DNA from: a virus | Lineage: Duplodnaviria > Heunggongvirae > Uroviricota > Caudoviricetes | Virus record (IMG/VR): IMGVR_UViG_3300019487_000021 | Strand: one strand, 5' to 3' | DNA length: 64,000 nt | Shown: piece after piece, positions 1 to 57,761 of the stretch | Layout of the letters: each line of letters begins with the position of its first letter | Position numbering within the stretch: the first letter of the stretch is position 1 | Program-made: the position numbers and the translations under genes | Notes under the pieces: generated by a model | The model's database searches: none | Told to the model about the DNA's origin: nothing | Seen by the model: only the letters and a program-made list of their open reading frames with translations

Positions 1-84
1 AAAAACAAGTAACGTCCGGTGCTTTCTGTTTGATGGGATACGGCTGGACTAAAAATGGAATGAATGTTTCGAGTAGACGATAAC

Positions 85-159
85 TGGACCGTAGCTCAGC
101 GGCAGAGCAGTGTGTTGATAACGCATTGGTCGGTGGTTCGATCCCACCCGGTCCAACCA
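85..159 (+). tRNA. tRNA-Ile (anticodon GAU, tentative)
   Basis: Manual cloverleaf: acceptor TGGACCG/CGGTCCA, D-arm GCTC..GAGC, anticodon loop TTGATAA, T-arm GGTGG-TTCGATC-CCACC, encoded ACCA. Confidence 0.8.
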
Positions 160-233
160 ATGTTGACAAAGCAGCAACAATCAGTGACGGTTAGAACCCA
201 GTGGTAAATAATCGCTTGGGTCAAAAGAAAACT

Positions 234-590
234 ATGTCAAGGTTACTTGCCGTGTTGCTGTTCTTTCCGGGCTTAGCATTTGCTGAGCAAATGACAGTAT
301 TCTACTGTCACAATGTTCTCATTCCTAAAGTTCAAATCACACACCACGCGCTAGCTGAGAAAATTCCTCGAACTGCGATTGTTGATCGAATTATTGATCG
401 ATTTTACAGTCACCGATTCTTTACGGATGCGCAAGCTACAGCAGTTAACGAAGCAATTGATCTTGCCATCAACATTGAAGTGTTAATTCCGTCGACTCTT
501 ACTTTGGAACAAGCAGACGCTTGGATCGATTCGTATATCCGATCCACGACTTGCACAACAGCAAAAGAAAGTCCGACGTATGGAGGATAA
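234..590 (+). CDS. secreted hypothetical protein (N-terminal signal peptide MSRLLAVLLFFPGLAFA)
   Basis: ORF with hydrophobic signal-like N-terminus; start chosen at first ATG inside the GTG-initiated ORF. Confidence 0.45.
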   Translation: MSRLLAVLLFFPGLAFAEQMTVFYCHNVLIPKVQITHHALAEKIPRTAIVDRIIDRFYSHRFFTDAQATAVNEAIDLAINIEVLIPSTLTLEQADAWIDSYIRSTTCTTAKESPTYGG

Positions 591-591
591 A

Positions 592-1008
592 ATGAAGAAA
601 CTCTTGTTTGCACTCACACTTGTATCTGGTCTGGCTCTTGGGCACGAAGGAACACCTCAGTCTGCTAATCCTGAAGAAGATCGAGCGATCATGTATTGCA
701 TGACTCACAGTGCTCGTGCGGCATGGGGAGCAAAAGCTCGCTTTTTTGGAGCTCCTGCAAAGTTCATCTATGTTCCGATGGAAAAAGTCAAAGCAATGAT
801 GCTTGGACAGACTGAAATCTTAAACGACGGGATCTACATCGCAGAAGAACTAACGCTCGACCAACGCAAAGACTACGAAGTCTCCGCATTCTTTGGCTGG
901 AAGCAAGCCGATCAGTGGGTTCAGAAAAACCTTAAACCGTTGGACAGTCATGAGCTGACTGCTAAGTTTTACCAGCACTGTCGTGAGCAAACCAAAAACG
1001 TAAAGTGA
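592..1008 (+). CDS. secreted hypothetical protein
   Basis: ATG preceded by GGAGGATAAA; signal-peptide-like MKKLLFALTLVSGLALG. Confidence 0.55.
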   Translation: MKKLLFALTLVSGLALGHEGTPQSANPEEDRAIMYCMTHSARAAWGAKARFFGAPAKFIYVPMEKVKAMMLGQTEILNDGIYIAEELTLDQRKDYEVSAFFGWKQADQWVQKNLKPLDSHELTAKFYQHCREQTKNVK

Positions 1009-1528
1009 GAACGGTATTTTAATCTTTCTAGACACAGAGTTCACTGATTTCATCGATTGTGAGCTGATCAGCATTGGAATGATCAGTTCAGGTGGGCATG
1101 AATTCTACTATGAACGAAACGACTTTGATGTTAGCAAGTGTAGTGAATTCGTGAAGGAAGGGATTCTACCGATGCTTTATAAGCAGCCAAATGTTGGAAG
1201 CAAACAAGACTGCGCCGATGCGGTAAGGGAATGGTTAAACGGTTTACCATACGAGCAAATCGTGTTTGTAATCGATTACTATGGTGACATTCAGCTGCTT
1301 GATGATCTGATGGATGGCGATTATGGGTCAAAAGTGAAAGATGGATATGCTGCACCCATTTCCTACATCCAAGTGATTGCTGCAGAAGTTGATGCTGAGC
1401 GCGAATGTGTGCTAGAATCCGAGATGTGGTATGAACGAAATAACGGTCAACGACATCATGCTCTTGACGATGCCAAGGCGAACAGAGCAGGTTGGATTGC
1501 TGTAATGCATAAGGCTGGAGTGTTTTAA
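1004..1528 (+). CDS. DEDDh 3'-5' exonuclease (DnaQ/DexA-like); start codon unresolved
   Basis: Motif III HHALDDAKA and motif II IVFVIDYYGDIQLLDDL lie in ORF 1079-1528. Exo I motif ILIFLDTEFTDF is in the same frame upstream (1022-1057), after a TAA at 1001, with no ATG/GTG/TTG available. Confidence 0.6.
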   Translation, partial: SENGILIFLDTEFTDFIDCELISIGMISSGGHEFYYERNDFDVSKCSEFVKEGILPMLYKQPNVGSKQDCADAVREWLNGLPYEQIVFVIDYYGDIQLLDDLMDGDYGSKVKDGYAAPISYIQVIAAEVDAERECVLESEMWYERNNGQRHHALDDAKANRAGWIAVMHKAGVF

Positions 1529-1639
1529 TGAAGCAGTGTGCAAAATGCACAGAAACGTCCGTTACCTCGCTTGCCGAATGCTTCAACACTAAATAATGTT
1601 GTATGTTTGAGTGTCACTGCCGAAGACATTCGAGCTTTT

Positions 1640-1710
1640 GCCCCTGCCATCGGATGGAGCCGGGACTTCTAATCTCAGCATTGCAGGTTCGAATCCTGCC
1701 AGGGGTACCA
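1640..1710 (+). ncRNA. tRNA-like RNA with canonical acceptor stem, T-arm and encoded CCA but no foldable anticodon arm
   Basis: Acceptor GCCCCTG/CAGGGGT, T-arm GCAGG-TTCGAAT-CCTGC, discriminator A plus CCA. The 36-nt middle segment forms only the mini-hairpin CCAT-CGG-ATGG and carries a loop-like UUCUAAU. Confidence 0.5.
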
Positions 1711-1728
1711 AATCGTTGTGGCACAAAG

Positions 1729-1760
1729 CAGACCCTAGTAAGGTCTGTTTTCCTTTTTGG
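1729..1760 (+). terminator. rho-independent terminator after the tRNA-like RNA
   Basis: CAGACC-ctagtaa-GGTCTG followed by a T-rich run. Confidence 0.55.
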
Positions 1761-1769
1761 GAGACAAAA

Positions 1770-2129
1770 ATGTCCAAAGCGTGGGGGTGGCATCTGATTC
1801 TTGACTGCGCACATTGCAACGACAATGTGAAGGACGCAGAAGCACTTCGTATGTTCGTCAAAGGTCTTGTTCTAGAAATCGACATGAAAGCGTATGGTGA
1901 ACCGGTTGTTGAACACTTTGCGACTCACGATCCAAACAAGGGCGGTTTTTCCTTAGTTCAACTGATTGAGACGAGTGCTATCACAGGCCACTTTGTCGAT
2001 CTGACAGGCGACGCATACCTTGATGTGTTCTCCTGCAAGGAGATTCCTGTCGAAAAGGCAGTTGCCTATGTCAACAAGTGGTGGAATCCTAAGTCGATTA
2101 AGGTCCATTTCTTGACGAGGCAAGCATGA
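1770..2129 (+). CDS. speD: S-adenosylmethionine decarboxylase proenzyme (small SpeH/SpeD class)
   Basis: GGFSLVQLIETSAITGHFVDLTGDAYLDVFSC matches the AdoMetDC self-processing region (ESH-SIHT-PE...DVFTC); RBS GGGAGA. Confidence 0.7.
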   Translation: MSKAWGWHLILDCAHCNDNVKDAEALRMFVKGLVLEIDMKAYGEPVVEHFATHDPNKGGFSLVQLIETSAITGHFVDLTGDAYLDVFSCKEIPVEKAVAYVNKWWNPKSIKVHFLTRQA

Positions 2130-2171
2130 AATTCATTTGTGTTACGAAGAACTCAAAAGGAAATATGGGTA

Positions 2172-2861
2172 ATGGCTCTAGCCTCTGTGACAATCACAGG
2201 AATTGATGAACGGACCGACTTGCAACAACTCCTGGAATTACAAGACAGGTATCCAAACATTGAATGGGGAGTGTTGTACAGTTTCAATCGACAAGGACAA
2301 CATCCACGCTACCCATCACAAGAGTGGATCAACAAATTACTTGTTCATATGAAGAACAAACGACTTCGTTGTGCCCTTCACATTTGTGGCTCAGCAGTTG
2401 GAGATTTCCTTGAAGGCAATGGCTACATTGTGATGCTTGCTGACAACTTCCCGCGAGTGCAGTTGAATTTCAATATAGGACGATTTGATATAAGCACGAT
2501 CCGGATAGGAATTCAACGCGCAAAAAATCGTCAAGTAATTACGCAGCACAATGAGAAGAACACGGAGCTGTGGAAAGATCTTACGATGTGCAACAATCAC
2601 GCTGTATTGTTTGACCAGTCAGGTGGCTATGGTATTGCACCACGAGAGTGGCCTAAACACTTGAAAGTGATCTCATGTGGTTATGCAGGTGGTCTTGGCC
2701 CCGACAATCTTGCTGAACAGTTGCCGATGATTGACAACGCTTCTGAAGGCAATCGGTATTGGGTTGATATGGAAACAAAAGTAAGGGACAATGACGACTA
2801 CCTTGACCTAAATAAGGTCAGGCAATGTCTACGACTCGTCGATGAGTTTGTAGGAAAGTAG
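2172..2861 (+). CDS. phosphoribosylanthranilate-isomerase (TrpF)-like TIM-barrel protein
   Basis: C-terminal LFDQSGGYGIAPREW...GYAGGLGPDNLAE resembles TrpF LLDS-GG-G-FDW...AGGL-P-NV; RBS AAGGAAA. Confidence 0.45.
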   Translation: MALASVTITGIDERTDLQQLLELQDRYPNIEWGVLYSFNRQGQHPRYPSQEWINKLLVHMKNKRLRCALHICGSAVGDFLEGNGYIVMLADNFPRVQLNFNIGRFDISTIRIGIQRAKNRQVITQHNEKNTELWKDLTMCNNHAVLFDQSGGYGIAPREWPKHLKVISCGYAGGLGPDNLAEQLPMIDNASEGNRYWVDMETKVRDNDDYLDLNKVRQCLRLVDEFVGK

Positions 2862-2873
2862 AGGAGCTTTGAA

Positions 2874-3073
2874 ATGAAATTCATTGTTGAAATCCACGCA
2901 GCAGAAGGTGGTGACGATAGCAAGTTGTTCGTCAAAGATCTCGCACAAGCATATCTCAAACTTTCAACTCGCAAGGGTTGAACAGCTCGCATTGTGCTAG
3001 ATGTGGCCGATGAGATCCGTGTTGAAGTGACGGGTCAAGACCTAGCACAATTGATGAATGAACCTGGCGGTCC
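2874..3073 (+). pseudogene. 5' fragment of a class-I release-factor paralogue (copy 1), with in-frame TGA at 2988-2990
   Basis: MKFIVEIHAAEGGDDSKLFVKDLAQAY aligns to the intact copy at 3618. Same GAGGAG RBS. Reading through the TGA continues as RF-like EVTGQDL...EPGG, then decays and is overlapped antisense by the HNH gene. Confidence 0.5.
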
Positions 3074-3547
3074 TTACTCACTGATCAGTTTCGATAGAGA
3101 TTCAACGAGCGTTCGCAGTTCTTGTAATGATGCATCGTGTTTGATCGCATTACAACGGTGGCAGCAAAGAACTACGTTGAAGGATGTATATCCTTCAGAA
3201 GGAATTAATCGATCGATGCTGGGTGAGCCGCGATGGTCTTTTCGTGTCCCATGCAAATTAAACGGATTGTGGCAATATACACAGCTGCTTTGTTGTTCAT
3301 GGAATTTTGATCGAATTTCTTCTCGTGTCAGTGTAAATGGGATGCTTCTTTTTGAAGAGCGTCGTGAAGCATCACCTACAGCAATAGTGAGCCATCGTTC
3401 CAGCGGTTCTTTGCCTTTGTAGCGACGCTGACTGTTTGAACTCTGACACCTTTTGCAGATGAAGTACAGTCCGTTGGCGTCGCGTCCTTTTGGGAAATCA
3501 GATGCGATTTTGGTGAGATTGCATTGTCTGCAAACTTTTGTAATCAT
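3074..3547 (-). CDS. HNH homing endonuclease
   Basis: CVYCHNPF...HGTRKDHRGSPSIDRLIPSEGYTSFNVVLCCHRCNAIKHD HNH motif; sits between two release-factor 5' copies. Confidence 0.8.
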   Translation of the reverse strand: MITKVCRQCNLTKIASDFPKGRDANGLYFICKRCQSSNSQRRYKGKEPLERWLTIAVGDASRRSSKRSIPFTLTREEIRSKFHEQQSSCVYCHNPFNLHGTRKDHRGSPSIDRLIPSEGYTSFNVVLCCHRCNAIKHDASLQELRTLVESLSKLISE

Positions 3548-3617
3548 GGTGAGTCTCCTCCTTGAGTGTTATTTATGGGGGACACCATTGAAGTTACTCC
3601 CACCGAGGAGAATGAAC

Positions 3618-4313
3618 ATGAAGAAAGTACACTTTGAAATTCACGCTGCCGCTGGCGGCGATGACGCGAAATTGTTTGTGGGCGAACTAGCAAAAGCATA
3701 CGAGCATATGTTCGTGCGTATGGCTTGGAAGTATCGCTGACTGCACACAGCACAATCGGCCGTGGGATACGCGTCGATTGTGTTTGAAGTGACGGGGAAT
3801 GTAGATATGTTGTTTAACGAATGCGGACTTGTCTCCTTGCAACGAGTTCCACCTACAGAGCGAAAAGGAAGAGTACACACATCGACCGTTACGGTTGCTG
3901 TGATTGATCTCGACAAGTATGTCAAACCAGACTACTCGTCAATCAGCACAAACGACCTGAAAGTTGAATGGTACTCCGGTAGTGGTGCCGGTGGGCAGCA
4001 TCGCAACAAGCATCAGAACAGTTGTCGCTTGACGCACCTTCCAAGTGGATGGACTGAGACGGCTCAGTGTCGCAGCCGAGATGCGTCATACAAGCAGGCA
4101 CTTGGACAGATGCAACGTGTGCTACAAAACAAAGGCAACTACCAAGTTGAACGTGCTCAATCCGTTGACCGGAAAGCACAAATGGGTTCTGGAATGCGTG
4201 GTGATAAGATTCGCACGTATCGTTTTCAAGACGATGTTGCAACTGACCACCGCACAGGAAGGAAAGTGAACTTGACAAAGGTAATGAACGGGAACTTCAA
4301 CCTGTTCTGGTAA
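3618..4313 (+). CDS. class-I peptide chain release factor lacking domain 1 (RF1/PrfH-like; PPT codon-recognition motif, GGQ); contains an in-frame TGA at 3738-3740
   Basis: AAGGDDAKLF...RVPPTERKGRVHTSTVTVAV...SGSGAGGQHRNKHQNSCRLTHLPSG aligns to RF1 domains 2-4. ORFs 3453-3740 and 3762-4313 are in the same frame, separated only by TGA, which sits at a normally coding position. RBS GAGGAG. Confidence 0.75.
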
Positions 4314-4317
4314 ACGT

Positions 4318-4923
4318 ATGTTGCAATACCCAAGTATACCAAGCTGGCGATACGTCGAACACGGACGACCATGCACAGCGTTTTACAAGTATGACGGATC
4401 GAATCTTCGATTCGAGTGGTCGTGGAAGCGTGGTTGGTACAAGTTCGGCACACGGACACAAATGATGGATGAAAACACACCGATTTATGGTGCGGCAATT
4501 CCTTTGTTCAAACAAACGATGGCTGAGTGGATCGCTCAGCGCTGTCAACATACTTTTGGTAAGAAGCTGGAACGCATCGTTGCGTTTGCAGAGTGGTTTG
4601 GACCATCAAGCTTTGCCGGTTGGCATGATGAGAATGAGAAGAAGCAACTCGTTCTCCTTGATGTGTCAATCTTCAAGAAAGGTGTTCTACCACCAGATCA
4701 GTTCTTGAAGTTCTTCGAGCGGGCAGATTTTTGCCCGAAAGTGATCTACAAGGGTGTGATGGATCAGCGGTTCATCGACAACGTTCGTGAGGGTCGGTAT
4801 CCAGTGTACGAAGGAGTTGTGTGCAAAGGAGTCGATTGGAACGCAAAAATCAAAACGGTCGAGTATCTCGACCGTTTGAAGAAGGAAAACACTGAAGCGT
4901 GGGAATTGATGAAGGACGAGTAA
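4318..4923 (+). CDS. small ATP-dependent RNA/DNA ligase (nucleotidyltransferase domain)
   Basis: Motif I FYKYDGSN (KxDG) and motif IV/V-like EGVVCKG. Confidence 0.55.
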   Translation: MLQYPSIPSWRYVEHGRPCTAFYKYDGSNLRFEWSWKRGWYKFGTRTQMMDENTPIYGAAIPLFKQTMAEWIAQRCQHTFGKKLERIVAFAEWFGPSSFAGWHDENEKKQLVLLDVSIFKKGVLPPDQFLKFFERADFCPKVIYKGVMDQRFIDNVREGRYPVYEGVVCKGVDWNAKIKTVEYLDRLKKENTEAWELMKDE

Positions 4924-5181
4924 TTACGCTTTGTCACCAATCTTTTCGAGATGGGCCTGAATCTTAGCAAGACCACGGCGAACACGAGAACGGTGCTTTT
5001 CACGCTCTTTCGGGTCCTTCAGCTTTTTAACAATCTGGAGGGCCCGTTTTGCTGCATCGAGCATTTTCTCGACATGCTCCTGACTTGCACCGGCCGGGAT
5101 CTCAACAGCTTCGTCAAGGATCGACAAATCGTCGTTTTTCTGGCCAAGTCCAGCAAGTTTTCTCATCTCGTTGATGTTCAT
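4924..5181 (-). CDS. hypothetical protein
   Basis: Minus-strand ORF with AGAGGA RBS; the overlapping plus ORF lacks signals. Confidence 0.5.
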   Translation of the reverse strand: MNINEMRKLAGLGQKNDDLSILDEAVEIPAGASQEHVEKMLDAAKRALQIVKKLKDPKEREKHRSRVRRGLAKIQAHLEKIGDKA

Positions 5182-5237
5182 TTCAGAATCCTCTAAGGTT
5201 GATGGGTATTTATGACCTATTGACTATTGGGACTAAA

Positions 5238-5630
5238 TACACAAAAGGAGGACATATGAAATACCTTCTGTTACTGTTGATTCTAGTTGTCACATCGAGC
5301 TTTGCCGGCGGCCCGTCAGAAGAATGTAGTATCTATGGCCGACTTGCTGGTGTAACAATGATGCACAAGAACAAAGCACGATGCCACGATTCTGAAGATG
5401 TGCAGAAATGTCAAGAACAATCTCGTCAGTATGTCACTTCATCCCTTCGAGAATTCCTGCAAGGAGAGCAACATTCAGAACAACTAATTACTAAGTTAGT
5501 TGAGTTTGTTGGAAGAGTGCACGACACGGAAGTTGATATGCTACCACGACACGCAGACGAGAAGTACTTTTTCGAGTGTTTTGATCGTTTTATTAAAGAA
5601 CGTGACCGAGAGCCAAACAAATCAAAGTGA
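5238..5630 (+). CDS. secreted hypothetical protein
   Basis: RBS AAAGGAGGAC; signal peptide MKYLLLLLILVVTSSFA. Confidence 0.5.
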   Translation, partial: YTKGGHMKYLLLLLILVVTSSFAGGPSEECSIYGRLAGVTMMHKNKARCHDSEDVQKCQEQSRQYVTSSLREFLQGEQHSEQLITKLVEFVGRVHDTEVDMLPRHADEKYFFECFDRFIKERDREPNKSK

Positions 5631-5690
5631 TCCTGGTAATTGGTCGGAATTTGGCAACAAACAACCCGGTAAGTTCTGTAGGAGATTTAC

Positions 5691-6182
5691 ATGAAAAGAT
5701 TACTCGTGCTATTGGTGTTTTCACCTACACTAGCTCTTGCTGATCATTGCCCAGTCCTAACAGGCACATACACGTGTCCAATGCAAGATCCCGACACAGG
5801 AGAAATCACGACGATTCTTGTGAAGATTACAACTGATGATCACAAATACACTGTCGTCCTTGGTGATGACCAGCCAGTTGAGTTTACGGACGGACATTCC
5901 GTTTCCGACATGGTGCCTGCTTCAGAAGGTGTGTACAGCTTGTATACTCGTTATTCCTGTACAGCTGACAAGAAGCTGGAAGTAAACTACCGCAATGCAT
6001 GGTACCACGATGGTCGGCCATACGAAGGTGAAGTTCCAACGTTTGAAGAGACGATGCAACAGTTTTATTCGCTTGACGAACAAGGCAATCTTGCTGAGTC
6101 CACGACACGGCAGCGCACTCAGCTTGGACGACAGGTCGGTCCACCGAAGTCAAAGTTTCGTATATGTGCTAAACAACAATAA
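5691..6182 (+). CDS. secreted hypothetical protein
   Basis: Signal peptide MKRLLVLLVFSPTLALA. Confidence 0.5.
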   Translation: MKRLLVLLVFSPTLALADHCPVLTGTYTCPMQDPDTGEITTILVKITTDDHKYTVVLGDDQPVEFTDGHSVSDMVPASEGVYSLYTRYSCTADKKLEVNYRNAWYHDGRPYEGEVPTFEETMQQFYSLDEQGNLAESTTRQRTQLGRQVGPPKSKFRICAKQQ

Positions 6183-6329
6183 CACTATATGATCAATGGT
6201 AGTCGGCGCTGGAGCGCGGCGGTGTCTTATAAACACTGGAGATCGGCTAGATTGGCTGGAACGGGAGGGATCGTAACCCTCGGCTACTACCAACGAATAT
6301 AGTGATAGAACCATATAATAAGGATATAA

Positions 6330-7400
6330 ATGATTTACCACAAGAACGTTGCGGTGATTGGTTACGGCCGAATCGGCCAAGCCATCAAACAATATCTCAA
6401 GCAAGAAGGCTTCAACGTAATGGCTTACGACGCGAAGCCAGTCGAAGGCGCAACGATTCTTGGTAAAGATGGCGACGGCCAGATCGACTATAAACCTGCT
6501 GTAAGCAACGCCGATTGTGTAATCGCTGCAACACCATTTTCTTCGAACATCTACATTGCTCACCAATGTCTTGAACATCAAAAAGCGTACTTTGATCTTA
6601 CTGAAGACGTGCTGATTGCACAGTTCATTCGTGACGACTCAATTCCGTATGTACGAGCAGGCAAGTTGGCTTGGATCTCTCCTCAGTGTGGACTTGCACC
6701 AGGAGCTGTTGGCATGGTTGCAAATCACTTAATTGATACATTTCAGGAAATTCGCGACGTTCGACTACGAGTCGGTGCTTTACCGCAGTTCGCCTCGAAC
6801 AAAATGAAGTACTACCTGACATGGTCAAGTGAAGGCCTTGTGAACGAATACTGCAACCCATGTCGAGTGTTGGTTGACGGAATCGAGTATGACGTTCCTG
6901 CATTGGACGGTTATGAACTGATTCAAATTGACGGTGATGAATACGAAGCATTTAACACCTCTGGTGGAATTGGATCACTAATTGAAACCGTTACGCGAAA
7001 TCATCCGAGTGTTCGAAATATCAACTACAAAACCCTTCGATATAAAGGCCACCGTGAGTTGCTAAGCTTCGCGCTTGACGATCTTGGTCTACGAAATAAC
7101 CAAAAGGTGCTTGTTGATCTATTCAATGCTAACGTTCCTCGGACAACGAGCGACTTTGTAGTAATCTACGTAGAAGTGACAGGCGTCAAGGACGGGTTGC
7201 TGAAAACCGAAACTTACAGCCGTAAGATTTACGGCGATGATAAGTTTACAGCAATCCAACGAACGACCGCTGCTGGTGTTTGCGCAATGGTTTATTATTG
7301 GGCCACGAGCAGTTATCCCCAACGAAACGGATACGTTCCTTGTGAAGATGTTGCAGTCACATCTCTCAACGGCAACCCGTTTTGGGACATCTTTCGTTGA
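6330..7400 (+). CDS. saccharopine-dehydrogenase-like NAD(P)-binding oxidoreductase (possible carboxy(nor)spermidine dehydrogenase or homospermidine synthase)
   Basis: N-terminal Rossmann VAVIGYGRIGQAI; the polyamine link is inferred only from the SpeD neighbour. Confidence 0.45.
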   Translation: MIYHKNVAVIGYGRIGQAIKQYLKQEGFNVMAYDAKPVEGATILGKDGDGQIDYKPAVSNADCVIAATPFSSNIYIAHQCLEHQKAYFDLTEDVLIAQFIRDDSIPYVRAGKLAWISPQCGLAPGAVGMVANHLIDTFQEIRDVRLRVGALPQFASNKMKYYLTWSSEGLVNEYCNPCRVLVDGIEYDVPALDGYELIQIDGDEYEAFNTSGGIGSLIETVTRNHPSVRNINYKTLRYKGHRELLSFALDDLGLRNNQKVLVDLFNANVPRTTSDFVVIYVEVTGVKDGLLKTETYSRKIYGDDKFTAIQRTTAAGVCAMVYYWATSSYPQRNGYVPCEDVAVTSLNGNPFWDIFR

Positions 7401-7459
7401 CCGATGATTAGGTATAGGGTACAATGTAGTTTCCTGTGACTCCTCTTTTAGGTGTAATC

Positions 7460-7927
7460 ATGTTTCGAGCTCTCATTCTCGCTCTACTGATCACGATTGC
7501 CGCTCCTGTGAATGCCGTTGATCTGACGGTTGATCTCGGAAAAGGTTGGATGCAACCTGACTCTGCGCGAATTGGCCTGTCATTTCCGGTCAAGTCATGG
7601 TTGAATCTCGAAACTGGCGTTCTCGGAACGAACGATGGTACTATCGTCGACGTAACGCCGATGCTTCACTATGGCAAGCGGTGGTATGTGGAAGGCGGGA
7701 TCGGTCTGTCACTCGCAACCGCCCGTGACCTTGGTGAGCTCGATCAGTCATCGTACTTGAACTTCCGAGATGTTCTTGGAGTTGGCTATCACTTCCCCAA
7801 CGGCAAATGGACGGCCGGCGTTCGATACGTTCATTACAGCAATGGTGGACGACTTAACCCGATTTTCGGAACGGACGATAATCACGGCTACGACTGGTTC
7901 GTCCTACACGTTCGTTACAAGTTCTGA
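7460..7927 (+). CDS. outer-membrane beta-barrel protein (PagL / acyloxyacyl-hydrolase-like)
   Basis: Signal peptide, alternating beta-strand pattern, HYSNG motif, terminal aromatic (YKF). Confidence 0.35.
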   Translation: MFRALILALLITIAAPVNAVDLTVDLGKGWMQPDSARIGLSFPVKSWLNLETGVLGTNDGTIVDVTPMLHYGKRWYVEGGIGLSLATARDLGELDQSSYLNFRDVLGVGYHFPNGKWTAGVRYVHYSNGGRLNPIFGTDDNHGYDWFVLHVRYKF

Positions 7928-7959
7928 GTTGTTTTACCCACATCAGCATTGTATACTGA

Positions 7960-7990
7960 GTGAACCCCCTTTATTGATAAAGGGGTTCAC
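7960..7990. repeat. near-perfect 14-bp inverted repeat (GTGAACCCCCTTTAT / ATAAAGGGGTTCAC)
   Basis: Read directly in the intergenic region between 7927 and 8006. Confidence 0.6.
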
Positions 7991-8005
7991 TGTTGGAGAA
8001 AAACA

Positions 8006-8644
8006 ATGCAACGTCTAATCCTTTTGGCACTTGCTGCCGTTCCGGTAATTGCAGGTGCTGTTAAAACCGATGCGTATGTTCTGGATCGTTTCGAAAATCT
8101 TGTTCGTGATAGCCAGAAACGCTGCATCCGAACTGGCACGTGGGCTCCCGAGAAAGCTTTACCAGAATGTGGTGATGTGGCCGCTCCTGCAGTTGAACCA
8201 ACGATGCAACCACTTCCTGGCGAAGTGAGTGCTCCAAAAATCGAAGAACCGGAAACAGCAACATCCGAGCCAAATGTAGAAATGAATGCAATGGCGTTGC
8301 CTTCTGAGAACGTGTTTTTTCATTTTGATAAAAGTGAGTTGACGCCAGACGCCAAAGTCGCCCTTGATGACTTAGCTGATCGAATCAACAAGGCAAATTA
8401 CAACATGGTTCTCATTAGTGGATATGCCGACATTATCGGAACAGCACCTTACAACGCTGTCCTTTCGCAAAAGCGGGCTTACAAAGTTGCTGAGTACCTC
8501 GATTCAAAGGGAGTCACGATCCCAATGGCCTACATCGGGCGGGGTGAATTGGCTCGCAATGAGGAAAACTGCACTGGTCTGGTTGGTGATACTCTTAAAC
8601 ACTGCTATCGCGGCGATCGACGCGCAACAATTGAGATTCAGTGA
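8006..8644 (+). CDS. OmpA/MotB-like peptidoglycan-binding protein
   Basis: FFHFDKSELTPDAK...ISGYADIIGTAPYNAVLSQKRAYKVAEYL...RRATIEI. Confidence 0.7.
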   Translation: MQRLILLALAAVPVIAGAVKTDAYVLDRFENLVRDSQKRCIRTGTWAPEKALPECGDVAAPAVEPTMQPLPGEVSAPKIEEPETATSEPNVEMNAMALPSENVFFHFDKSELTPDAKVALDDLADRINKANYNMVLISGYADIIGTAPYNAVLSQKRAYKVAEYLDSKGVTIPMAYIGRGELARNEENCTGLVGDTLKHCYRGDRRATIEIQ

Positions 8645-9024: not shown

Positions 9025-9275
9025 AAATCTTTCAATACACGTACACGGAACCTGAGCTAGTTGAGTTCGCAAATCAAGTTCGTCGGTGTGTTGTTCGTGC
9101 GCTTCAGCACGAACAGGCATTAACGGCAGAACAAGCGACGAATTTTAACGACACGCATATTGTTGTTATAGCGGAACCGTGGCGATGGTTCCCTTGGTTC
9201 AAGAATCGTAAAAAAGGGGTGCGAATGACCGTTGTTAAGCTTCTTGAACGAATCAACGACGAACCGTACGAATGA
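9021..9275 (+). CDS. hypothetical protein
   Basis: ATG with AAGGA RBS; overlaps the previous stop. Confidence 0.4.
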   Translation: MKIFQYTYTEPELVEFANQVRRCVVRALQHEQALTAEQATNFNDTHIVVIAEPWRWFPWFKNRKKGVRMTVVKLLERINDEPYE

Positions 9276-43481: not shown

Positions 43482-44076
43482 CGGAAACCCAAATGAAACT
43501 CAACCACCAACTCGATTTGTTTCTACCAAACCCGACCGAAGAAGACCTTGCTCACTTCAAAGGCAAGATCATTAAGCCTGGCGTTGAGCTATTGAACGCG
43601 CCGTGGTGGAATGCAAAAGAAGGCCGTTGGGAAGGACTGGCCAATGTTGGTGGTGCTTTGTGCATCGTCGAACTCTCTATTAAAACTCTTTGTTGACCCT
43701 ATTTGATTCTGTGTGATGATGAACCACAATTCTACCTGGCTCTTGAACTAGCTCATCAACTTCATGACGAGCTTTCCCAAATCCTGTCCGACCCTGCCCA
43801 AGACGACTAAATATCTCGTGTTCTATCGGAGATATTGATGCGGCTTGACGAGATCGTTGAATCGACCAAAAAACCCACAAGAATCAGCGGGGCGGATAAA
43901 TACCGTCAAACGTTGATCGACGGCGTAAACGATATCGTTAACTATCGTGACGCTCAGTACGTTCCTATGCCAAAGAAGCGCAAAAAGCGTAATCGGACGA
44001 CCGATGTGGCACAGAACTCGATCATTAACACACTTTGGCACTACCAAAGTGCAGACGCTTCGTAAGGGAGAGACAC

Positions 44077-53552: not shown

Positions 53553-53630
53553 TGTGGGAGAGGCGCCAGGGTGGCAACCGCTCCGCTGTTAACGGAGACT
53601 AGACAGGTTCGATTCCTGTTCCCACAGCCA
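53553..53630 (+). tRNA. tRNA-Asn (anticodon GUU), irregular D region
   Basis: Acceptor TGTGGGA/TCCCACA, anticodon arm CTCCG-CTGTTAA-CGGAG, T-arm ACAGG-TTCGATT-CCTGT, G plus CCA. Confidence 0.65.
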
Positions 53631-54804: not shown

Positions 54805-54879
54805 GCTTCGTAAACTTTGACGGTGAAGCCCACTCCTGTAAAGTGGCGGAAGTAGGTTCGAATCCTACACGGAGCTCCA
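54805..54879 (+). tRNA. tRNA-Thr (anticodon UGU; C33)
   Basis: GCTTCGT/ACGGAGC, CCACT-CCTGTAA-AGTGG, GTAGG-TTCGAAT-CCTAC, T plus CCA. Confidence 0.6.
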
Positions 54880-57187: not shown

Positions 57188-57442
57188 ATGCCCGTGCCTG
57201 ACTATAAAATTCTGTTTGAAGTGACGGGGAATGTAGATATGTTTGAAGTGGCCAAGAAAGCGAAACTTGAATTATTGCTCGAGGATTTGCGTGATCTTCG
57301 AAAAGAGTGGCTCGATGCCACCCACGGAGCCTATTACGGCGAAAGTGCCGAAGAAGCTTCACAGGAAGAAGGCCGAATCAGTGGTAAGATTTCATGTGCT
57401 GATGATCACGATTATTTAATCGAGAAGTATGGCACGAAGTAA
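57188..57442 (+). CDS. hypothetical protein whose 5' end contains a 31-nt exact copy of the release-factor gene
   Basis: tgtttgaagtgacggggaatgtagatatgtt at 57213-57243 is identical to 3779-3809. Confidence 0.35.
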   Translation: MPVPDYKILFEVTGNVDMFEVAKKAKLELLLEDLRDLRKEWLDATHGAYYGESAEEASQEEGRISGKISCADDHDYLIEKYGTK

Positions 57443-57761
57443 CACGAGAGCAGCAACTGGCACTCGAGCCGATCGATACTGCTTGATGCATCAGGTAAGT
57501 CGGTCGGAGAACTTGGAGGTAAGCTCAGCCGCTCAGGGTGACCCGAAAAGGGTGGAGCCGTGACAACAGAGCCGACGCAGCACGGCAGCGTTAGACGTCT
57601 TGGAATAGCATTGGCTTCTGAGAACGTGACGGATTTGATCCCTGCTAGTGCTTTAAGGGCGTACCCAGTACCGCGAGAAGAGTACAGGCATAGAGACCCG
57701 GCTATGACACTTAAATGCAAGGCCTCGGTCGTCCGGTCGACCGAGTTCCAAAAAGGAACAC

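Follow-up and report, generated by a model that had tools for sequence, protein, structure and literature searches.

A mosaic, UGA-interrupted release-factor gene beside a predicted HNH endonuclease in a jumbo phage

Why should a phage carry the beginning of a release-factor (RF) gene twice, with the gene of a predicted HNH endonuclease lodged on the opposite strand between the two copies? The question is raised by a genome fragment of a Caudoviricetes virus (IMG/VR virus record IMGVR_UViG_3300019487_000021), of which a stretch of 64,000 nucleotides (nt), here called the window, was analysed. An earlier note on this DNA, made from its letters alone, proposed a homing event with flank duplication or co-conversion that had partially duplicated the target gene. 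The RF gene is a mosaic with definable junctions, its relatives lack both the HNH gene and a second RF 5′ copy, and HNH genes of this lineage recur beside RF genes. We consider it likely that an HNH-associated, one-sided recombination put a foreign 5′ end on the RF gene in place of the native one, which was displaced.

Mosaic structure of the release-factor gene

The locus comprises the following features (window coordinates).

Ending at 2861: gene of 240 amino acids, function unassigned, upstream of copy 1
2861–2866, plus strand: GAGGAG ribosome-binding site of copy 1 (relic), read from the sequence, 7 nt 5′ of the ATG at 2874
2874–3073, plus strand: copy 1, putative displaced native RF 5′ end, 66 codons, MKFIVEIHAAEGGDDSKLF...NEPGG (Pfam PCRF, relatives)
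2979–2981, plus strand: in-frame TGA of copy 1, codon 36, at the family-typical position of a conserved Trp
3074–3547, minus strand: gene of a predicted PacI-like HNH endonuclease, intact, 157 amino acids
3548–3617: divergent intergenic spacer of 70 nt, with both ribosome-binding sites
3555–3563, minus strand: AAGGAGGAG, ribosome-binding site of the HNH gene, 7 nt 5′ of its ATG
3605–3610, plus strand: GAGGAG ribosome-binding site of the copy 2 RF
3618–4313, plus strand: copy 2, complete RF gene, 231 codons, PCRF and RF-1 domains
3618–3836, plus strand: putative foreign 5′ part of copy 2, codons 1–73, with TGG at the family TGA site and a five-residue insertion
3738–3740, plus strand: in-frame TGA of copy 2, codon 41, next base C, four codons 3′ of the family position
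3777–3811, plus strand: 35-nt patch inside the foreign part, recurring at 57209–57243
3837–4313, plus strand: putative native 3′ part of the RF gene, LQRVPPTE..., stop TAA
3849–3857 and 3990–3998, plus strand: PPT and GGQ, respectively, within the native 3′ part
4318–4923, plus strand: RNA-ligase-like gene with a KYDGS motif (phrog_548, E = 6e-9), the right-hand syntenic anchor

Single-protein scans of IMG/VR with the RF or the HNH protein returned nothing, and alignment queries were needed. An alignment-based scan gave 420 viral contigs with RF relatives, of which 80 were kept; two loci from a protein look-up completed a set of 82 phage loci. The closest loci, L001, L002, L004 and L083, are termed clade A, and the amino-terminal (N) and carboxy-terminal (C) parts of the protein were compared across 70 unique family members.

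Copy 1 is matched by Pfam PCRF, which corresponds to RF domain 2 (35 bits, E = 1.6e-8), and in tblastn (E = 6e-6). The 5′ parts of the two copies are 47.7% identical in protein (31/65) and 64.6% in DNA, and the only repeat common to them at DNA level is a 13-mer. The earlier note was accurate in describing an RF N-terminal segment present twice at about 50% identity, each with its own GAGGAG, and a well-formed HNH gene on the opposite strand between the copies. It was mistaken in describing a decayed tail of copy 1 overlapped by the HNH gene: RF homology stops abruptly at 3072/3073, and the open frame running on from copy 1 to 3422 is merely antisense to that gene. Copy 1 aligns with HNH-free relatives through ...NEPGG, right before the HRLQRVPPT recognition loop, and its DNA follows theirs to GGCGGTC at 3072/3073. 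Directly after it comes the HNH stop codon in complement (TTA on the plus strand, 3074–3076), which places the left junction flush with that stop. By its sequence, copy 1 reads as an intact native relic and not as a decaying copy.

Affinity to the relatives changes within copy 2. The N-part of copy 1 is 67–71% identical to the N-parts of L001–L004 and L083, and the C-part of copy 2 is 65–70% identical to L001, L002 and L004, its top-ranked matches (62–70% when L005 is included); the figure falls to 50% against L083, itself divergent in the C-part. The N-part of copy 2 is just 45–48% identical to clade A. Across the family, the N-part identity minus the C-part identity has a mean of 0.4 and a per-sequence standard deviation of 4.1; a chimera of copy 1 and the C-part of copy 2 gives an ordinary −2.4, and the N- and C-parts of copy 2 give −17.7 points, more extreme than all 70 family members. 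In a sliding identity profile, copy 2 runs 25–35 points under the clade until the LQRVPPTE column and then tracks it. Score ranking puts L001, L002 and L004 first for both the N-part of copy 1 and the C-part of copy 2, and a different sub-clade first for the N-part of copy 2 (L091, L089, L026 and L061, at 41–53% identity), with which this part has a five-residue insertion and an FVGELA motif in common. No closer homologue of the copy 2 5′ part was found among 5.8 billion proteins, and the insert does not stand out in base composition. The phylogenetic discordance between RF segments for which the earlier note had suggested looking is thus present. Given the discordance of identity and ranking within copy 2, copy 1 together with 3837–4313 appears to be the native gene, and 3074–3836, comprising the HNH gene, the spacer and the foreign 5′ third of the RF gene, appears to be an insertion.

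The same note had suggested defining the insertion site from related phages without the HNH gene. In all 82 phage loci, the closest (L001–L005) included, the RF gene is single and uninterrupted with no HNH gene against it, and copy 1 aligns with them up to ...NEPGG. A second RF 5′ part was found in none of about 165 related loci (82 phage and 80 genome loci screened), and no relative examined has a doubled RF 5′ end in the absence of an endonuclease, an arrangement that would have pointed to plain gene duplication followed by decay. A caveat to the absence of duplicates comes from the bacterial locus L094 (Pararhizobium sp. BT-229), which has three orphan RF 3′ fragments with no recognizable nuclease between them. 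There, within 5001–8640, a UGA-interrupted RF gene is followed by orphan C-terminal fragments at 6134–6454, 6792–7109 and 8356–8640, interleaved with small minus-strand genes of unassigned function and a helix-turn-helix gene; Pfam gave no nuclease domain in the genes between the fragments. The locus looks like repeated displacement of RF 3′ ends.

A separate observation concerns the 35-nt patch in the 5′ part of copy 2, which codes for IVFEVTGNVDML. Its recurrence at 57209–57243 is identical at 34 of 35 positions and includes an exact 31-mer, where none is expected by chance. The second copy lies 54 kb away in an unrelated 84-residue open reading frame (ORF; 57188–57442), with no similarity beyond the patch; conversion, template switching or a nuclease target common to both sites might account for it. 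Downstream of this ORF and of a transfer RNA (tRNA) cluster, the interval 57440–57760 is G+C-rich and structured-looking, has no convincing ORF and matched no Rfam family at E up to 1.

The HNH endonuclease and the history of the locus

The minus-strand ORF is predicted, from sequence and structure modelling, to encode an HNH (beta-beta-alpha-metal) endonuclease of a PacI-like clade, with a DR variant rather than the canonical motif. Its protein matches the endonuclease families phrog_1035, phrog_3322 and phrog_3118 (E = 7e-28 to 2e-13) and, by sequence profile, the restriction endonuclease PacI (E = 3.6e-6). The motif SPSIDRLxPSEGYTxxNVVLCCHRCNAIK is kept in homologues, and from SIDRL to its end it aligns with VDRSDSFEGYSPQNARLACFICNRIK of PacI. 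Four CxxC pairs (C6xxC9, C31xxC34, C89xxC92 and C129xxC132) are invariant in three homologues, and a conserved Asn (N124) precedes the C-terminal C129HRCNAIK. An AlphaFold2 model of moderate confidence (predicted local distance difference test (pLDDT) score of 77), with only three sequences behind it, has PacI (3ldy) as its best PDB match in Foldseek (E = 1.3e-4); further matches are Gme HNH, Cas9 HNH, McrA, Cap5 and T4 endonuclease VII. The canonical DH general-base histidine is absent, the motif reading S-I-D-R with DR across the family, and PacI, a proven nuclease, has V-D-R aligned at the same position.

This HNH lineage is rare, with three proteins at 50% identity or more among the 5.8 billion searched, within a wider family that is large. 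All four members with readable context, namely those in the window, L083–85 and L170 (the P0122 contig was left out), adjoin an RF gene, in three different arrangements.

Window: relic rightward, HNH leftward, RF rightward
L083–85: RF rightward, HNH leftward, ligase-like gene rightward; RF and HNH tail to tail, their 3′ ends overlapping by 40 nt
L170: HNH and RF rightward on the same strand, HNH immediately upstream, its end overlapping the RF start

In tblastn of L001–L085 and the window, an HNH gene stood against the RF gene in the window and L083–85 only, with one weak, distant match 4 kb from the RF gene in L081; L170 came from an HNH-based search. The RF of L083 is itself a mosaic at its other end: its N-part is about 88% identical to L002, and its last ~60 residues, beside the HNH gene, are 14–49% identical where the clade is at 75–89%. 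The window and L083 thus each have a localized, foreign-looking RF segment on the HNH-facing side, as co-conversion in homing would produce. At the junction, EPGGHR is near-invariant in the family and is replaced by ECGLVS in copy 2 of the window and EPGCHK in L083; altered junction codons in both HNH-bearing genes fit target-site immunity, a match that is suggestive only. Sporadic presence, recurrent association with RF genes and a mosaic flank in the window and L083 are features seen in free-standing homing endonucleases.

From these sequence features we infer homing, with the HNH enzyme or its donor-borne copy as the maker of the break. The event would have begun with a double-strand break at about codon 66 of a native RF1-type gene lacking domain 1, before the PxT stop-codon-recognition loop. 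The right end would have invaded a divergent donor laid out like L170, with an HNH gene directly upstream of the donor RF, homology on this side being provided by the highly conserved stretch coding for LQRVPPTERKGRVHTS. Copying would then have proceeded back through the 5′ part of the donor RF and on through the HNH gene, and the left end would have been joined illegitimately, with no homology and right at the HNH stop, so that the native 5′ end stayed where it was. The outcome would be the arrangement seen: a native relic (2874–3073), the HNH gene (3074–3547, minus strand) and a chimeric RF gene, foreign over 3618–3836 and native over 3837–4313. The interpretation in the earlier note is thereby supported and made more precise: a foreign flank lies beside the HNH gene, and instead of a duplication of the gene's own sequence there is a replacement, the native 5′ end having apparently been displaced.

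Several points weigh against this history. The HNH gene may be a passenger of recombination caused by something else, and the breakpoints of the two HNH-bearing mosaics differ, lying at about residue 70 in the window and about residue 150 in L083. The donor lineage is unsampled, the best match to the foreign 5′ part reaching 49–53%, so that divergence in place becomes possible. The nearest HNH-free relatives are about 70% identical, which fixes the junctions to the codon and not to the base. As for the enzyme, the structural match comes from the three-sequence model (pLDDT 77, template modelling (TM) scores of 0.42–0.46), and the DR in place of the canonical DH, though shared with PacI, leaves nuclease activity a prediction.

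Four other explanations of the layout are weaker than insertion by recombination. Tandem duplication of the gene's own 5′ region, with the HNH gene inserted between the copies and the downstream copy diverging afterwards, would account for the identical GAGGAG before each RF 5′ part and sits well with the absence of any sampled donor closer than 53% to the copy 2 5′ part. We nevertheless think it improbable: the functional copy must have fallen to 48% identity while a useless relic stayed at 70%, intact and in frame, the insertion and FVGELA motif of the copy 2 5′ part are common to another sub-clade, and the sole DNA repeat between the copies is the 13-mer. No more probable is an ancestral tandem pair of complete RF paralogues, most of the upstream one being deleted when the HNH gene was inserted. 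The layout by itself is compatible with such a pair, and RF fragments do pile up in L094, but two RF 5′ parts occur in 0 of 82 phage and 0 of 80 genome loci, copy 1 and the C-part of copy 2 together behave as one ordinary orthologue, and the discordance inside copy 2 would still need recombination.

HNH insertion is known to split phage genes, as with Aeh1 nrdA and mobE, and copy 1 retains its ribosome-binding site, its ATG and the family-typical TGA, as might be expected of exon 1 of a gene with a self-splicing intron or of a separately translated N-terminal piece. The HNH gene is, however, on the opposite strand, the downstream RF has a complete 5′ domain, ribosome-binding site and start of its own, the HR codons are missing before LQRV, which leaves no clean exon junction, and Rfam at E up to 1 on 2700–4400 gave only a chance match to a small RNA; an intron or split gene is accordingly very hard to credit. 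Least credible is an assembly chimera or collapsed population variants, to which a metagenomic source is in principle open. Four contigs from JGI and ENA assemblies carry the arrangement, three of them collapsed as sharing most of their neighbouring proteins, and on the 100-kb contig L087 from a different sample (JGI 3300019458) it is 100% identical over 6.5 kb; the arrangement is thus not an assembly artefact.

An in-frame UGA in phage and bacterial release-factor genes

Apart from its mosaic 5′ end, the RF gene has a second peculiarity, absent from the earlier note: an in-frame TGA in both copies. Copy 2 has PCRF and RF-1 domains (76.6 and 63.2 bits in Pfam), and its NCBIfam scores are 183.6 bits for prfA, 96.3 for prfB, 36.9 for prfH and 15.6 for ArfB; RF1 ranks above RF2, and RF2 above PrfH, and in a PDB search RF1 again exceeds RF2 (120 versus 72 bits). 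The PxT tripeptide (PPT, in QRVPPTERKGRVHTS) is of the RF1 type and not the SPF of RF2, and GGQ is also present. Domain 1, of about 100 residues, is absent, the match beginning at position 104–112 of the prfA model and at RF1 residue 88 or later, and the prfA score lies below the equivalog cutoff of 400 bits. By these criteria copy 2 is classed as an RF1-type core without domain 1 and not as a prfA equivalog, and by its motif an RF1-type PxT protein should not read UGA. A rescue factor of the PrfH or ArfB type was rejected on the same scores and the presence of PxT, and with it, on the RF side (prfH 37 versus prfA 184 bits), an analogy of the RF and RNA-ligase pair to PrfH and RtcB.

A single in-frame TGA is present in each of the 82 phage loci, at codon 36 in all but two (codon 37 or 40), aligned with a conserved Trp; 'full-length' database proteins with W at this site are code-4 gene calls. 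Among 76 unique genes, each with its one TGA, the remaining 158 Trp codons are all TGG. In copy 2 of the window the family site is TGG, and TGA-C follows four codons on; the Pfam PCRF match runs in frame across this TGA. Copy 2 is an exception that supports the rule, the replacement 5′ end having kept a putative UGA gate at a shifted codon.

The 35 codons 5′ of the TGA are under purifying selection (ratio of nonsynonymous to synonymous polymorphism (pN/pS), 0.27), and 67 of 70 RF genes carry a Shine-Dalgarno sequence. Directly 3′ of the TGA stands A in 59 genes, G in 14 and C in 3, and never T. Over codons 37–46 (L001–L082) synonymous change is suppressed, around the consensus TGA ACT ACC CGC CTG ATA: R39 is CGC in 54/62, L40 is CTG in 44/58 and I41 is ATA in 53/55, set against a same-codon identity of just ~0.2 for upstream Leu codons. 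RNAalifold gave no conserved RNA structure or hairpin around the TGA.

The rare codon ATA, nearly fixed five codons after the TGA, may be set beside an odd tRNA at 6198–6292 of the window, 90–95 nt long with a long variable arm and the anticodon UAU. The same type is kept near the RF gene in relatives (L002 10005–10099, L004 8883–8973, L019 2392–2483 and L058 6067–6156); these are ARAGORN calls that do not reach the gathering score of the Rfam tRNA model.

A phage recoded genome-wide to read TGA as Trp (code 4) was rejected for the window, where TGA is an ordinary stop: it ends 36 of 102 ORFs, several with ATGA overlaps, and a coding-like extension past the TGA was seen in 1 of 11 TGA-terminated genes. 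That one, the ORF at 43493–43696 extended by 37 codons, is the only other TGA ORF with a coding-like extension (0.278 per codon) free of any overlapping gene, and may be a second case of readthrough. Neither the window nor 30 related loci yielded a UGA-suppressor tRNA. A tRNA-Trp(CCA) gene occurs in several loci, sometimes directly beside the RF gene, and stands directly or a short way upstream of the UGA-interrupted RF gene in L106 (4766–4841), L170 (749–822) and L099 (1536–1611). To judge from sequence, full-length RF requires bypass of the early in-frame UGA, most likely by Trp-inserting readthrough that would compete with host RF2.

Homologues in bacterial and archaeal genomes, 29–60% identical, were kept at 80 loci, which fall into the following classes.

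Frameshift of +1 at CTT TGA, with GGAGG or GGGAG three nt upstream: 37/80 loci
In-frame TGA, at the Trp site or about ten codons later: 17/80 loci
Split or other: 15/80 loci
Partial, at a contig edge: 7/80 loci
Uninterrupted: 4/80 loci

The in-frame TGA stands at the Trp site in isolates of Jiella, Pararhizobium, Thalassospira and Gemmobacter, and at the later site in Variovorax and on a Cupriavidus plasmid. The frameshift class includes Nannocystis and other Myxococcota; the frameshift in Thiobacillus denitrificans was confirmed by eye, its scripted class being 'split or other'. The frameshift cassette and the Trp site are no more than a residue or two apart. The prfB-type +1 frameshift was found neither in the window nor in the 82 phage loci, where the TGA is in frame. 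Several bacterial RF loci lie, like phage ones, inside tRNA arrays.

Taken from these sequences, the family looks gated by UGA termination; the phage type would rely on readthrough by a near-cognate tRNA-Trp and the other type on +1 slippage. Gating by UGA termination means that RF output would rise when RF2 activity is low. We lean, with some reserve, towards a general reading. Domain-1-less RF1-type factors would form a large and seemingly undescribed family in jumbo phages and bacterial mobile elements, often in or next to tRNA arrays. Their synthesis would almost always be UGA-gated, by readthrough in phages and Alphaproteobacteria and by a CUU UGA C frameshift in Myxococcota and some Betaproteobacteria. 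They would then act as sensors of the capacity for UGA termination (RF2) or have an unexpected UGA specificity, the gate having been kept by the 5′ end that came with the HNH gene.

Neighbouring genes, known systems and implications

The RF C-part is also present on a contig of 351,809 bp, which points to a jumbo phage with a tRNA-rich genome of about 352 kb. Searches of GenBank phages with 2100–5200 gave no nucleotide match, and protein matches were all below 37% identity, mostly to bacterial-type RFs. Promoter and terminator scans stayed at chance level, with no convincing sigma-70-type promoter in the spacer 3548–3617. The window holds 11 tRNA genes; in the tRNA cluster at 53–57 kb, Rfam and ARAGORN disagree over the calls at 54805–54876 and 53553–53630.

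Genes for RNA and translation care cluster with the RF gene: the RNA-ligase-like gene directly downstream in the window, a PTH2 peptidyl-tRNA hydrolase in L083 (3077–3451) and a Ro60/TROVE-VWA protein in L002 (11076–12188). Adjacency of RF and RNA ligase is limited to the closest relatives (L002 and L005 by tblastn synteny, and also the RF neighbourhood of L083). Flanking genes of polyamine type are an S-adenosylmethionine decarboxylase (phrog_3125; 1611–2129) and a saccharopine-dehydrogenase-like NAD(P) enzyme (6330–7400). In L064, a 363-kb relative, a transfer-messenger RNA gene (5660–6173) overlaps the end of the RF gene region, and 3.5 kb away, at 9139–9215, lies a tRNA with anticodon CUA (called 'Pyl', of amber-suppressor type).

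Among known systems, the mob and seg genes of T-even phages encode free-standing HNH and GIY-YIG homing endonucleases with co-conversion of flanking markers, and their classical homing events are two-sided and leave no duplicate. The window resembles them in having an intergenic, free-standing endonuclease gene that occurs sporadically by a conserved gene and has a divergent mosaic flank. It differs in its one illegitimate join and its PacI-like DR clade, and homing here is read from sequence.

In anatomy, the locus is analogous to mORF hybrid genes known from fungal mitochondria (Allomyces macrogynus atp6; Glomus atp6, atp9, cox2 and nad3), where an endonuclease ORF has been inserted together with a foreign gene end that is functional, the native end being a displaced relic (PMC3630166). 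In both, the native relic is nearer to relatives than the inserted functional part. The differences are that the window concerns a 5′ end and a predicted PacI-like HNH gene on the opposite strand, in a jumbo phage with a translation factor as target, whereas the mORF cases concern a 3′ end with in-frame GIY-YIG or LAGLIDADG ORFs.

For the UGA, the nearest precedents include prfB, which encodes RF2 and is autoregulated by a +1 frameshift at CUU UGA C (PMC12421855). Common to prfB and this family is an early in-frame UGA in an RF gene, and the bacterial homologues have GGAGG or GGGAG, a 3-nt spacer and CTT TGA C. The window and the phage loci differ in needing readthrough, in having the site in domain 2, with domain 1 absent, and in the RF1-type PxT. 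Two further ones are the reported recoding in the eRF1-like gene of Megavirus and Mimivirus (PMC3521657) and the reported readthrough autoregulation of plant eRF1 (PMC5397192), in which a stop codon must be bypassed as here, in an unrelated eRF1 family and in other hosts. Phage- or element-borne RF1 genes by tRNA genes are known from TGA-recoded Jade phages, whose RF1 belongs to a 'code-change module' and is reported to be written in the standard code (bioRxiv 10.1101/2021.08.26.457843), and from mycobacterial tRNA arrays, where RF-1 genes lie beside HNH genes (PMC5966550). Unlike in Jade phages, TGA is a normal stop elsewhere in the window, and the search of the window and 30 related loci turned up no tRNA to suppress it.

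The locus offers a clean, datable phage example of an endonuclease-associated event that would have rebuilt a gene of an essential type. Its anatomy, with the foreign end in and the native end left behind, has until now been known chiefly from fungal mitochondria. The locus further points to a PacI-like HNH lineage specialized on RF genes, one whose target lends itself to direct mapping. The apparent UGA gate, conserved in the family, is a newer element of the finding than the endonuclease-associated mosaic, and no description of it in this RF family was found in the searchable literature. One practical consequence is systematic mis-annotation, as gene callers split, truncate or rescue these RF genes with code 4. 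In a widespread RF family, conservation of an early UGA is as strict as that of the catalytic motifs, and this UGA appears to interconvert with a prfB-style frameshift. This makes it testable whether mobile elements sense or manipulate the termination capacity of their hosts, and how readthrough and +1 frameshifting may replace one another in evolution.

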